The notes under the pieces were generated by a model. That model had not been told where the DNA came from and did no database searches. It was given only the letters and a program-made list of their open reading frames with translations. From the NCBI RefSeq assembly GCF_055900595.2, contig NZ_CM148325.1: 64,000 bases of DNA. The stretch is one strand, 5' to 3'. The position numbers and the translations under genes are program-made. Of the stretch, positions 21,587-55,150 are shown piece after piece. Positions within the stretch are counted from its first letter, which is position 1, and the number at the start of each line of letters is the position of its first letter.

Positions 21587-22340
21587 GTTGTCACCCTGGA
21601 CCTGGTCGTACATTTAAGAAATTAAATCATTTCAACTTGGTTGTTAACGCAACCTGTATTTTGTTAACGCCGCGTTACGATGGAAAGTATGTCTGCGGAA
21701 ATATTTTTAATAACTCACCTGCGCGTTGTATTTTTCTTTTTTTGTTCATACCAAAGTATTAAAACCCACGTAAATACGCTGTTATCTACGCAAAAAAATA
21801 TTTTGTTTTCTTTTAAATTTCGGTTTTCCGCAATCAAAAATCACCAGACAGTCATTCTTCTTGCCCGTCGCTGATTGCTGCGATATGTCTTGCGCACAAG
21901 CCGTGACAAACCTCGTCTTTTTGCAGTAAAAAATTGTCCACGGAGGTGTGGAGAAAAAACAAGAACGTTTTACATGACGAAAGGACTACACCGAAATATT
22001 TTTTATATGCATTATTAGCAAGTTAGCACCATTTGTATGATTTTTTAAAATTGTGCAAGAAAAACCAAATGTACAACTTTTCTATCATTTCTAAACTTAA
22101 TAAAACCTTAAGATTAACATTTTAATATAACGAGTTACATTTAGTTACATGTTTAACACTTGATTTAAGATTTGTAATGGCTAGATTGAAATCAGATGTA
22201 ATCCATTAGTTTTATATTTTACCCATTTAGGGCTGATTTATTACTACACACAGCAGTGCAACATCTGTCAGTACTTCTGGTGCTTCTATTTTAGAGGCAG
22301 CTGTCAGGTGTGCGATCAATAAAAAAAGCGGGGTTTCATC
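21587..22340. promoter_or_regulatory. Divergent csgBAC / csgDEFG control region (AT-rich, ~750 bp)
   Basis: Long AT-rich intergenic region between divergent csgB and csgD; by established knowledge it carries the RpoS-dependent csgD and csgB promoters and a long csgD 5-prime UTR; individual binding sites not resolved by eye. Confidence 0.7.
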
Positions 22341-26715: not shown

Positions 26716-27159
<444 letters not shown>

Positions 27160-27182
27160 TTATCAAAATCATTAAGTTAAGG

Positions 27183-27244
27183 TAGATACACATCTTGTCA
27201 TATGATCAAATGGTTTCGCCAAAAATCAATAATCAGACAACAAA

Positions 27245-27252
<8 letters not shown>
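27183..27252 (-). ncRNA. IS10 antisense RNA-OUT (position inferred from the canonical IS10 map, not independently delimited)
   Basis: By established knowledge IS10 pOUT produces a ~69-nt antisense RNA overlapping the 5-prime end of the transposase mRNA near the outside end; coordinates are approximate. Confidence 0.4.
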
Positions 27253-29028
<1,776 letters not shown>

Positions 29029-29222: not shown

Positions 29223-29310
29223 GGTGAGGTGTCCGAGTGGCTGAAGGAGCACGCCTGGAAAGTGTGTATACGGCAACGTATCGGGGGTTCGAATCCCCCC
29301 CTCACCGCCA
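29223..29310 (+). tRNA. serX: tRNA-Ser (anticodon GGA)
   Basis: GGTGAGGTGTCCGAGTGGCTGAAGGAGCACGCCTGGAAAGTGTGTATACGGCAACGTATCGGGGGTTCGAATCCCCCCCTCACCGCCA: cloverleaf with long variable arm, anticodon loop CTGGAAA, encoded CCA. Confidence 0.93.
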
Positions 29311-29413
29311 TCTTTAAAGAAGAGCTCGTACGAAGGTACGGGCTTTTTTTTCGTATATTGCACACACCGGGGGATGAAAAGCCCCGACCGGGGTTCGACA
29401 ACTGGCGACAAAC

Positions 29414-30781
29414 TCAATCATCATCCTTGCAGTTGATAAGAATTTCTGCCTCTTTTACAACTATCTTATTACGTCCGGTTTCTTTCGCTTCATATAGTGC
29501 ATTATCAGCCATTCGATAGATTTCATTCGGATTTAACGCACTTCCCTGAGTCACCACAGCGCCAATGCTAATCGTCACTTTTTGCGGTATGGCGTATTCA
29601 GGATTATCGCCTGTCAAACGCTCTACATTTGCCCTTATCCTTTCGGCTAAAACTTTCGCGCTTTCAGTATCGGTCTCCGTCAGCAAGACGCCAAACTCTT
29701 CGCCGCCAACGCGTGCTAAAAGGTCATTTGGTCGTATGCTTTTCCCAATGATGCTCACCACTGTTTTTATCACCTGATCGCCAACCGGATGCCCCCACGT
29801 ATCGTTAACTTTTTTAAAGTGATCGATATCCATAATCATGACACAATAAGACGTTTTTTGGGCTGATGCTGATTGAGCCTTCAGTTCATTGAAAAAATAA
29901 TTCCTGTTAAATATATTAGTTAATGGATCGCGATGGGCAATGTTCTTTGTTACTCGTAGCGCACTGAAAATATGGCACATAAATATTACCATAACGGTTA
30001 ATTTACTGACTACTTCAATAGTGCGGCTAATATACCAAGTGGACACACTATACCTGCTCATAAATAACAGAGAGATATTATACAGCACGGCACAGAAAGC
30101 AATCACTGATACTCCATTCCAGATATCACAGCGTAAACCATTAAAGTATAGATTAACCAAAAGCAAGATTAACCACATGAAAATCATTATGGTAACATAT
30201 GAGGTTTTCCAGACTACCTGACCATTTTCATTTGTTAACTCGGCAATATGTAAACTGTAGTCATCATAATGACTACTTAGCATGTGAGCAACTGCCGCCC
30301 CCCCAAAAATAAAAAATAGGCTTATACACAATGTCATTTTTTTGGAAAAAAAACAGCGTTTCTTATTGTTTTCACTAACTTTATTCACCAGCGCTAGCAA
30401 TATTAACATGCACAAACTCATCTGACGAAACAAATAATAAATTGCAATATCATTTTGTACAACGCTGCTTATCAAATGCCCCTCAATAAATTGCTGAATG
30501 ATAATGGCAGTTTTAACAAAGTAAATCAAACAACTCAGAAACGCTAAACTAAGTATACAGTTTGAAAATTGCACACGATCATAAATGAAATACAATTGCA
30601 TGAAAATAAATGCAACGGTATCGATAAAAAATAAAGCAATCATAACCATTAGATAGGTTGATCGTGGAACAACCTCCTCAACGGTTGGCTGATTAAACCA
30701 ACTATTTACCAAAACGAATGCAAGCCCAAACAATAAGCTCACCAATACAGTACTACTAATTCCCAAATAGTCTTTTTCCAT
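29414..30781 (-). CDS. dgcT: Membrane-anchored diguanylate cyclase (GGDEF; active-site variant GGEEF)
   Basis: Product MEKDYLGISSTVLVSLLFGLA from internal ATG of ORF 29414..30871; N-terminal multi-TM domain; C-terminal GGDEF domain (RVGGEEFGVLL); recognised as DgcT (YcdT). Confidence 0.88.
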   Translation of the reverse strand: MEKDYLGISSTVLVSLLFGLAFVLVNSWFNQPTVEEVVPRSTYLMVMIALFFIDTVAFIFMQLYFIYDRVQFSNCILSLAFLSCLIYFVKTAIIIQQFIEGHLISSVVQNDIAIYYLFRQMSLCMLILLALVNKVSENNKKRCFFSKKMTLCISLFFIFGGAAVAHMLSSHYDDYSLHIAELTNENGQVVWKTSYVTIMIFMWLILLLVNLYFNGLRCDIWNGVSVIAFCAVLYNISLLFMSRYSVSTWYISRTIEVVSKLTVMVIFMCHIFSALRVTKNIAHRDPLTNIFNRNYFFNELKAQSASAQKTSYCVMIMDIDHFKKVNDTWGHPVGDQVIKTVVSIIGKSIRPNDLLARVGGEEFGVLLTETDTESAKVLAERIRANVERLTGDNPEYAIPQKVTISIGAVVTQGSALNPNEIYRMADNALYEAKETGRNKIVVKEAEILINCKDDD

Positions 30782-41591: not shown

Positions 41592-42422
41592 TTACGCGGA
41601 GCGAGACGCTGTCGCCCCTGCGCGCGGCGGCAGAGCAAATGCCACCAGCGCCGGGATGAGATAAATAAACCAGACGGCGACTTCGCTGACGCTCGGCGCT
41701 TCCTGATAACCAAAGATACCTTCCATCAGCGTACCGAAAAGCGAGTGAGTTGAGAGCACCGCGCTCATATCGAAGGCGATTTCCTGAAAGTGGTTCCACA
41801 GCCCGGCTTCATGAAACGCGCGAATAGCACCTGCCGCCAGCCCTGCGGCGACGAAGAGAATAAAGAGGCTGGTCCATTTAAAAAACGCGCCAAGATTGAG
41901 GCGAATACCGCCCCAGTAGAGCAGGAAGCCGAGCACCACGGCTGTAGCAAGACCGAGCATTGCACCCAGCGGAGGCCAGATCCCGACATCTTGTTGAAAC
42001 GCCGCCAGCAGGAAAAAGACCGACTCCAGCCCTTCCCTTGCAACGGCAAAAAAGACCATCATCACCAGCGCCCAGCCATGATGATTCCCACGCTGCAATG
42101 CGCTATCGACTGCCTGTTCCAGTTGCACTTTGACGTTGCGCGACACTTTACGCATCCAGAAAACCATCCAGGTGAGGATCACCACGGCAATCACCGCCAC
42201 GATACCTTCGAACAATTCCTGCTCTTTTTGCGGAAATTCGCCGGTGGTTTCATTAATGAAGATACCCAGCCCCAGGCACAACGCAGCGGCTAGCAACACG
42301 CCAATCCACATGACACCAATCCATCGACCTCGCTGGGTACGCTTAAGATAGCTGGCAATCAGGCTGACAATCAGCGCGGCTTCAAGTCCTTCGCGCAACA
42401 TAATGAGAAACGGAACAAACAT
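41592..42422 (-). CDS. efeU: Ferrous iron permease EfeU (Ftr1 family), intact
   Basis: 276-aa product MFVPFLIMLREGLEAALIV from ATG 42422; two RExxE iron-binding motifs (REGLEAA, REGLESV); single uninterrupted frame. Confidence 0.9.
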   Translation of the reverse strand: MFVPFLIMLREGLEAALIVSLIASYLKRTQRGRWIGVMWIGVLLAAALCLGLGIFINETTGEFPQKEQELFEGIVAVIAVVILTWMVFWMRKVSRNVKVQLEQAVDSALQRGNHHGWALVMMVFFAVAREGLESVFFLLAAFQQDVGIWPPLGAMLGLATAVVLGFLLYWGGIRLNLGAFFKWTSLFILFVAAGLAAGAIRAFHEAGLWNHFQEIAFDMSAVLSTHSLFGTLMEGIFGYQEAPSVSEVAVWFIYLIPALVAFALPPRAGATASRSA

Positions 42423-42476
42423 GCCACCCACCCTTAAACGTTTTTCTGAGTCAATCTATGCAAAGAAAGGTAAATC

Positions 42477-42540
42477 GCAGTGATAGCGATTATCATTACG
42501 GTGAAGAAAAACACAAGCGGAATGTAGTGATAATGATGAG
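42477..42540. promoter_or_regulatory. efeU promoter region with Fur-box-like sequences
   Basis: GTGATAGCGATTATCATTAC and GTGATAATGATGAG resemble Fur consensus GATAATGATAATCATTATC. Confidence 0.6.
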
Positions 42541-42641
42541 GAAATGTAAATTTTTTTTGAGAGAAAATGCAGAGGGCAATCACTGATTGCCCTCTGCCTG
42601 CTTCTGATTATGACGTGGGATTTTCGGTAAAACGCCTTCCC

Positions 42642-54949: not shown

Positions 54950-55150
54950 AACCGCCGGGATTACCGGCGGTGCAGATTGTTGACAACGTGCGCATTGTTC
55001 ATGCCGGATGCGGCGTGAACGCCTTATCCGGCCTATAAAACAGTGCAAATTCAATATATTGCAATCTTCTGGTAGGCCTGATAAGCATCGCGCATCAGGC
55101 AAGCTTACATTTGTCATCAGTATCAACCGCCGGGGTAACCGGCGGTGATG
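54950..55150. repeat. REP/BIME cluster with flanking hairpins downstream of rutG
   Basis: ACCGCCGGG(A/G)TTACCGGCGGTG hairpin at both ends (54951..54975, 55126..55148) bracketing inverted REP units (GCCGGATGCGGCGTGAACGCCTTATCCGGCCTA; GTAGGCCTGATAAGCATCGCGCATCAGGCA). Confidence 0.8.

Follow-up and report, generated by a model that had tools for sequence, protein, structure and literature searches.

We found that the 64-kb window, that is, the whole stretch of DNA analyzed here, which covers the torA-rut-putAP-efeUOB-phoH-pga-csg-mdoGH-pyrC segment of the E. coli chromosome, in all probability carries the efeUOB (ycdNOB) operon of an E. coli other than K-12 in its ordinary wild-type form, with a working EfeUOB system. 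The observations established directly were the integrity of the genes, their family membership, the identity of EfeU with the protein of O157:H7, the conserved sequence of the proximal promoter, and the lesion of K-12 together with its distribution in the species. The features of the locus are collected in Table 1.

Table 1. Coordinates in the window of the efeUOB genes, their motifs and the neighboring sites.
Feature	Position	Strand	Remark
REP325/naRNA4 tandem array, 100-bp period, 2.6 copies	38867..39122	-	Tandem Repeats Finder; two Rfam naRNA4/CssrE matches above the gathering score
efeB, DyP-type haem peroxidase/deferrochelatase, 423 aa	39130..40401	-	Pfam Dyp_perox_N and Dyp_perox_C
efeO, periplasmic cupredoxin and imelysin (M75) protein, 375 aa	40407..41534	-	Pfam Cupredoxin_1 and Peptidase_M75
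efeU, Ftr1-family inner-membrane iron permease	41592..42422	-	intact, 276 codons and TAA (ORF list and raw sequence)
RExxE motif 2, REGLE, residues 129-133	42024..42038	-	
Site of the K-12 frameshift	42315..42319	-	window GGATTGGTG, K-12 GGATT-GTG; missing base is window 42317, codon 36
RExxE motif 1, REGLE, residues 10-14	42381..42395	-	
CpxR-type box GCAAAGAAAGGTAAA	42460..42474	+	candidate; private spacer base at 42469
Fur-box-like site TGATAATCGCTATCA	42481..42495	-	59-73 bp upstream of the efeU ATG
Hairpin, 13-bp stem, then T-rich tail	42569..42597	-	upstream limit of the compact putP-efeU spacer

The open reading frame list and the raw sequence agreed on efeU, which begins with an ATG at 42422 and ends with a TAA at 41594-41592 on the minus strand, with no internal stop codon. 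The initial annotation had described a single unbroken frame of 276 codons, and its coordinates, strand and length were all confirmed; a check for an overlooked stop or frameshift, by alignment with K-12 and by translation, also found the frame whole, with the G at nucleotide 106 of the gene in place. An alternative GTG start at 42431, three codons upstream, would give a protein of 279 aa, but the ATG, not the GTG, is the start in the RefSeq annotation of the near-identical strain Z0117EC0005. The product matched Pfam FTR1 (PF03239, E=1.8e-89, 300 bits against a cut-off of 25.3, residues 1-275), the NCBIfam EfeU equivalog (NF041756, 331 bits, cut-off 255) and TIGR00145 (352 bits, cut-off 304). 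Both RExxE motifs that had been reported from the first reading are present, each as REGLE; the first lies within a hydrophobic 19-mer (residues 5-23, Kyte-Doolittle), and the segment surrounding the second was below the Kyte-Doolittle threshold used. No relative of solved structure came up when EfeU was searched by sequence against the PDB.

The genes efeU, efeO and efeB are adjacent on one strand, with gaps of 57 bp (efeU-efeO) and 5 bp (efeO-efeB), and the same gaps were found in O157:H7 and Z0117EC0005. The two partner genes, which had likewise been called intact, are indeed full frames, and both products match NCBIfam equivalog models (EfeO equivalog, 773 bits; tat_substr_1 equivalog for EfeB, 614 bits). 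EfeO has a signal-peptide-like sequence at its N-terminus and HRLE at residue 217. EfeB has the twin-arginine motif SRRRLLKG at residues 13-20 and retains D235, H329 and R347, which we take, from the EfeB/YcdB structure literature, to be its DyP haem residues; 11-13 residues of EfeB differ from K-12, O157:H7 and ABU 83972, none of them at these three positions, and the differences from O157:H7 also spare the twin-arginine motif. Directly downstream of efeB, at what is likely the 3' end of the efeUOB operon, is a REP325/naRNA4 array (nucleoid-associated noncoding RNA); a terminator scan of the efeB-phoH interval for a simple hairpin followed by a T run found none.

The initial annotation had also stated that efeU is a frameshifted pseudogene in K-12, and this proved correct. 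In the K-12 strain BW25113, efeU is 830 bp long and is flagged as a frameshifted pseudogene in RefSeq, so the K-12 reference is not intact at this locus. Pairwise alignment showed that one G is missing at gene nucleotide 106, after which the translation reads W-I-V-stop and ends at codon 37. PMC2808357, citing Grosse et al. 2006, describes the EfeU transporter of MG1655 as non-functional through this frameshift. Among 5426 complete E. coli genomes, efeU was found in 5417, and the K-12 deletion allele was present in 367 (exact match of a 50-mer across the deletion). The 60 genomes listed among these 367 are mostly K-12 laboratory strains or genomes of K-12-like size, and the strains among the matches listed include MG1655, W3110, DH10B, MC4100, BW25113-type evolved lines, TOP10, XL1-Blue and JM83. 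To see whether other inactivating alleles are common, we took an even sample of 40 of the 5417 efeU matches, in which the only 1-bp length changes were those of its three K-12-type members. The sample also included a pig isolate, E. coli F2_81, with an efeU of 816 bp (L005 1001-1816) that has an in-frame 15-bp deletion and that the annotation still treats as an intact CDS, an example of rare natural length variation outside K-12. In E. coli, efeU is normally intact, K-12 being the exception; since this is the species default, intactness tells little beyond "not K-12".

We compared the locus with K-12 (MG1655, BW25113), with O157:H7 (ATCC 43888) and with ABU 83972, which stands for the B2 group; the strain of Grosse et al. 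2006 was Nissle 1917, and our B2 comparison rests on ABU 83972 instead. K-12 has the same locus and neighbors as the window (putA-putP-efeUOB-phoH-pga). The EfeU of O157:H7 (EFEU_ECO57) is identical to that of the window at 276/276 residues, and the 40 nucleotide differences in 831 between the two genes are all synonymous. When the deleted G was restored, the K-12 protein was also identical to the window protein, again with only synonymous nucleotide differences (37 in number). Because all of these differences are synonymous, there is a clear sign, at the level of sequence, that EfeU is under purifying selection. In O157:H7, gene order, gene lengths and intergenic spacing within efeUOB are as in the window, EfeO differs at 1 residue and EfeB at 13. 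Between putP and efeU, O157:H7 contains an additional gene of 1.3 kb, and its distal promoter sequence is not that of the window. In ABU 83972, efeUOB is intact, with ~6% nucleotide divergence in efeU and 3, 3 and 11 amino-acid differences in EfeU, EfeO and EfeB, respectively. The efeU of Z0117EC0005 equals that of the window base for base, and its RefSeq protein, WP_000497942.1, bears the same accession as that of O157:H7. The exact EfeU sequence was found on at least 1000 contigs, and the representative of its UniRef cluster is EFEU_ECO57.

The window is clearly not reference K-12, as had been claimed from the first reading: efeU is ~95% identical to K-12, and most of the window shows 94-98% identity, with ~97.5% in its first part (1-27 kb) and 94-96% further on (38-64 kb). 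Divergence from K-12 amounts to 4-6% from efeB to torA and reaches 13% at 58-60 kb (yccE region). Thousands of other positions already set the window apart from K-12, so the intact efeU adds nothing as a strain marker. Over 30-54 kb, eight complete genomes were nearly identical to the window, the next best was 98.4% identical and the bulk of the species was at ~96%. The haplotype at 38-64 kb, which includes efeUOB, is a rare one that could belong to a deep lineage or have been imported by recombination; in the latter case the donor may have been a deep Escherichia lineage, and EfeU would have stayed free of amino-acid changes. Z0117EC0005 differs from the window by scattered SNPs, by lacking the IS10 copy described below, and by a prophage in ycdX (L007 4186-32000) that is missing from the window.

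Several other elements were observed in the same segment. An IS10 copy of 1329 bp (window 27138-28466), with a transposase ORF of 402 aa and an Rfam RNA-OUT match, is inserted in ghrA and splits the gene; a direct repeat of 9 bp, CGCCAGGCC, borders it at 27129-27137 and 28467-28475, and the site is uninterrupted in K-12 and Z0117EC0005. Gene content near tRNA-Ser(GGA), window 29223-29310, varies between strains: between dgcT and this tRNA, K-12 carries IS3 and ycdU (3.2 kb), which are absent from the window (junction 29411-29456). Rfam matches above the gathering score were obtained for Ysr251 (37609-37802, 191 bits), ES056 sRNA (22194-22285), ES036/CssrF sRNA (55037-55079) and the PyrC leader (2879-2928), all on the plus strand.

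Previous studies described efeU as Fur-regulated (PMC3832793, PMC4145685), and the initial annotation had pointed to Fur-box-like sequences in its promoter. Such a site is present: TGATAATCGCTATCA has two mismatches to the 7-1-7 Fur consensus TGATAATNATTATCA, and no second match of this quality occurs in the 64-kb window, where 0.23 would be expected. The classical 19-bp Fur consensus gave no match at up to three mismatches, and by eye the box has four mismatches to this 19-mer (15/19). The box is identical in the window, K-12, O157:H7 and ABU 83972, and the final 88 bp before the efeU ATG are identical in these four as well, bar one base. Since the box is unique in the window and conserved, it is very likely, judging from these comparisons, that Fur control of efeUOB has been retained.

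The assignment of CpxR to efeU alongside Fur is also published (PMC4145685). The CpxR-type box of Table 1, at -38, has the highest score among the CpxR boxes predicted for the efeU promoter of K-12 in a genome-wide PSSM list (PMC9600279 supplement). We used CpxR consensus matches only together with this list, and GTAAA-N5-GTAAA with one mismatch, which gave 6 matches in the window against 4.5 expected, has no statistical weight alone. Both predicted CpxR boxes have conserved pentamers. In the variable part of the putP-efeU spacer, the curated CpxR site known from K-12, GGAATGTTTATAAAA, reads GGAATGTAGTGATAA in the window and ABU 83972, unlike in K-12 and O157:H7. At 42469, gene-strand position -47, the window reads C where all comparators read T; this base belongs to the N5 spacer of the CpxR-type box and is outside its GTAAA-type pentamers. 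The 61-bp segment holding the Fur and CpxR-type boxes was found in 5413 of the 5426 genomes with few mismatches, and a 61-bp query centered on 42469 had no exact match among these 5413. With about one SNP per 4 kb between the window and its nearest relatives, a private SNP at this base is unremarkable by chance, and the spacer is the position where a change is least likely to matter.

The spacer between putP and efeU (42423-42641) is of a compact 219-bp type, and its hairpin is likely the putP terminator. In K-12 this spacer is 542 bp long, with a TRIP1b repeat and a REP-like element, both of which the window lacks, whereas ABU 83972 has the compact spacer with the terminator hairpin, as in the window. 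Only the last ~128 bp before the ATG form the universal part of the efeU upstream region, and the compact type is common to 1206 of the 5417 genomes, including ST131 and APEC O1.

These differences bear on a rival reading in which the genes are intact and the operon is poorly expressed or misregulated, through the 42469 SNP, the B2-type curated CpxR site or the compact spacer without TRIP1b/REP. We consider this reading improbable. The SNP is unique, lies in a very conserved segment and is inside the top-scoring CpxR box, and the curated CpxR half-site is unlike that of K-12 and O157:H7; yet the changed base is in the N5 spacer and not in a pentamer, and there is no change in the Fur box, in the ribosome-binding region or at the other proximal bases. 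Moreover, 1206 genomes, B2 strains such as ST131 and APEC O1 among them, have this compact spacer together with the variant CpxR site, and the fully synonymous pattern of efeU differences from O157:H7 (40/40) indicates that the gene is still under selection. That the 42469 base itself alters Cpx/pH control of efeUOB, for instance by lifting repression when the pH is neutral, is conceivable at long odds. We keep to the ordinary, regulated operon: Cpx/pH control is likely retained, and given the variant curated site its details may not match those in K-12 and O157:H7.

Previous studies indicate that in O157:H7 and Nissle 1917 EfeUOB is functional at low pH and under Fur control (PMC3832793; PMC3852070). 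For O157:H7, function at low pH is credited to Cao et al. 2007 in PMC3852070 and PMC3832793. Since the window encodes the identical EfeU and the system works in O157:H7, the functional prediction is stronger than the initial annotation could know; we infer, with good support, a working EfeUOB system, and for the coding part of efeUOB the grounds for predicting function are very good. Expression, regulation and transport activity in this strain are what we infer from the comparison of sequences, with expression and acid induction predicted from the conserved promoter.

In the proposed mechanism, EfeU would act as an Ftr1p-like permease, with the two REGLE motifs as its proposed iron-binding sites. 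EfeB would be exported by the Tat pathway and act with EfeO in the periplasm, where Fe2+ would be oxidized by EfeB/EfeO. According to the prevailing model (PMC3832793), which draws on yeast Ftr1p/Fet3p and on EfeUOB of B. subtilis as analogues, Fe3+ would then be bound by EfeO and handed to EfeU for import. Fe2+-Fur would be expected to repress transcription at the conserved box upstream of efeU, and CpxAR to modulate the operon, so that it would be expressed when pH and iron are low. The genes for Fur, CpxAR and the Tat machinery lie outside the 64-kb window.

It is also conceivable that the main role of the system is not Fe2+ import, and that EfeB acts as a deferrochelatase on periplasmic haem or the system takes up Fe3+; if so, an intact efeU alone would not predict ferrous-iron uptake. 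EfeB and its paralogue YfeX may extract haem iron in K-12, where efeU is broken, and EfeU may carry Fe3+ after oxidation (PMC3852070); B. subtilis EfeUOB imports both ferrous and ferric iron (PMC3832793), and the NCBIfam name for EfeB is deferrochelatase/peroxidase subunit. However, such a role is compatible with Fe2+ uptake, and low-pH growth dependent on Fe2+ was reported for the O157:H7 system with the identical EfeU (Cao 2007, as cited in PMC3852070 and PMC3832793), as was EfeU activity in Nissle 1917 (Grosse 2006, as cited in PMC2808357, PMC3852070 and PMC3832793). We regard a main role of this kind as very improbable indeed, and retain ferrous-iron uptake as the predicted function.

An intact efeUOB is nothing new: publications of 2006-2007 had already described the lesion in K-12, a functional system in O157:H7 and Nissle 1917, and regulation by Fur and CpxAR, and all three are built into the RefSeq annotation. 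The result has little weight beyond annotation, namely that the strain has the standard gene set for low-pH ferrous-iron uptake, and it calls for caution in extrapolating K-12 phenotypes to natural isolates, K-12 being atypical. Like yeast Ftr1p/Fet3p and B. subtilis EfeUOB, the system in the window combines an FTR1-family permease having two RExxE motifs with an extracytoplasmic iron-oxidizing partner; in the window, however, a cupredoxin/M75 protein and a DyP peroxidase take the place of a multicopper oxidase as partners.
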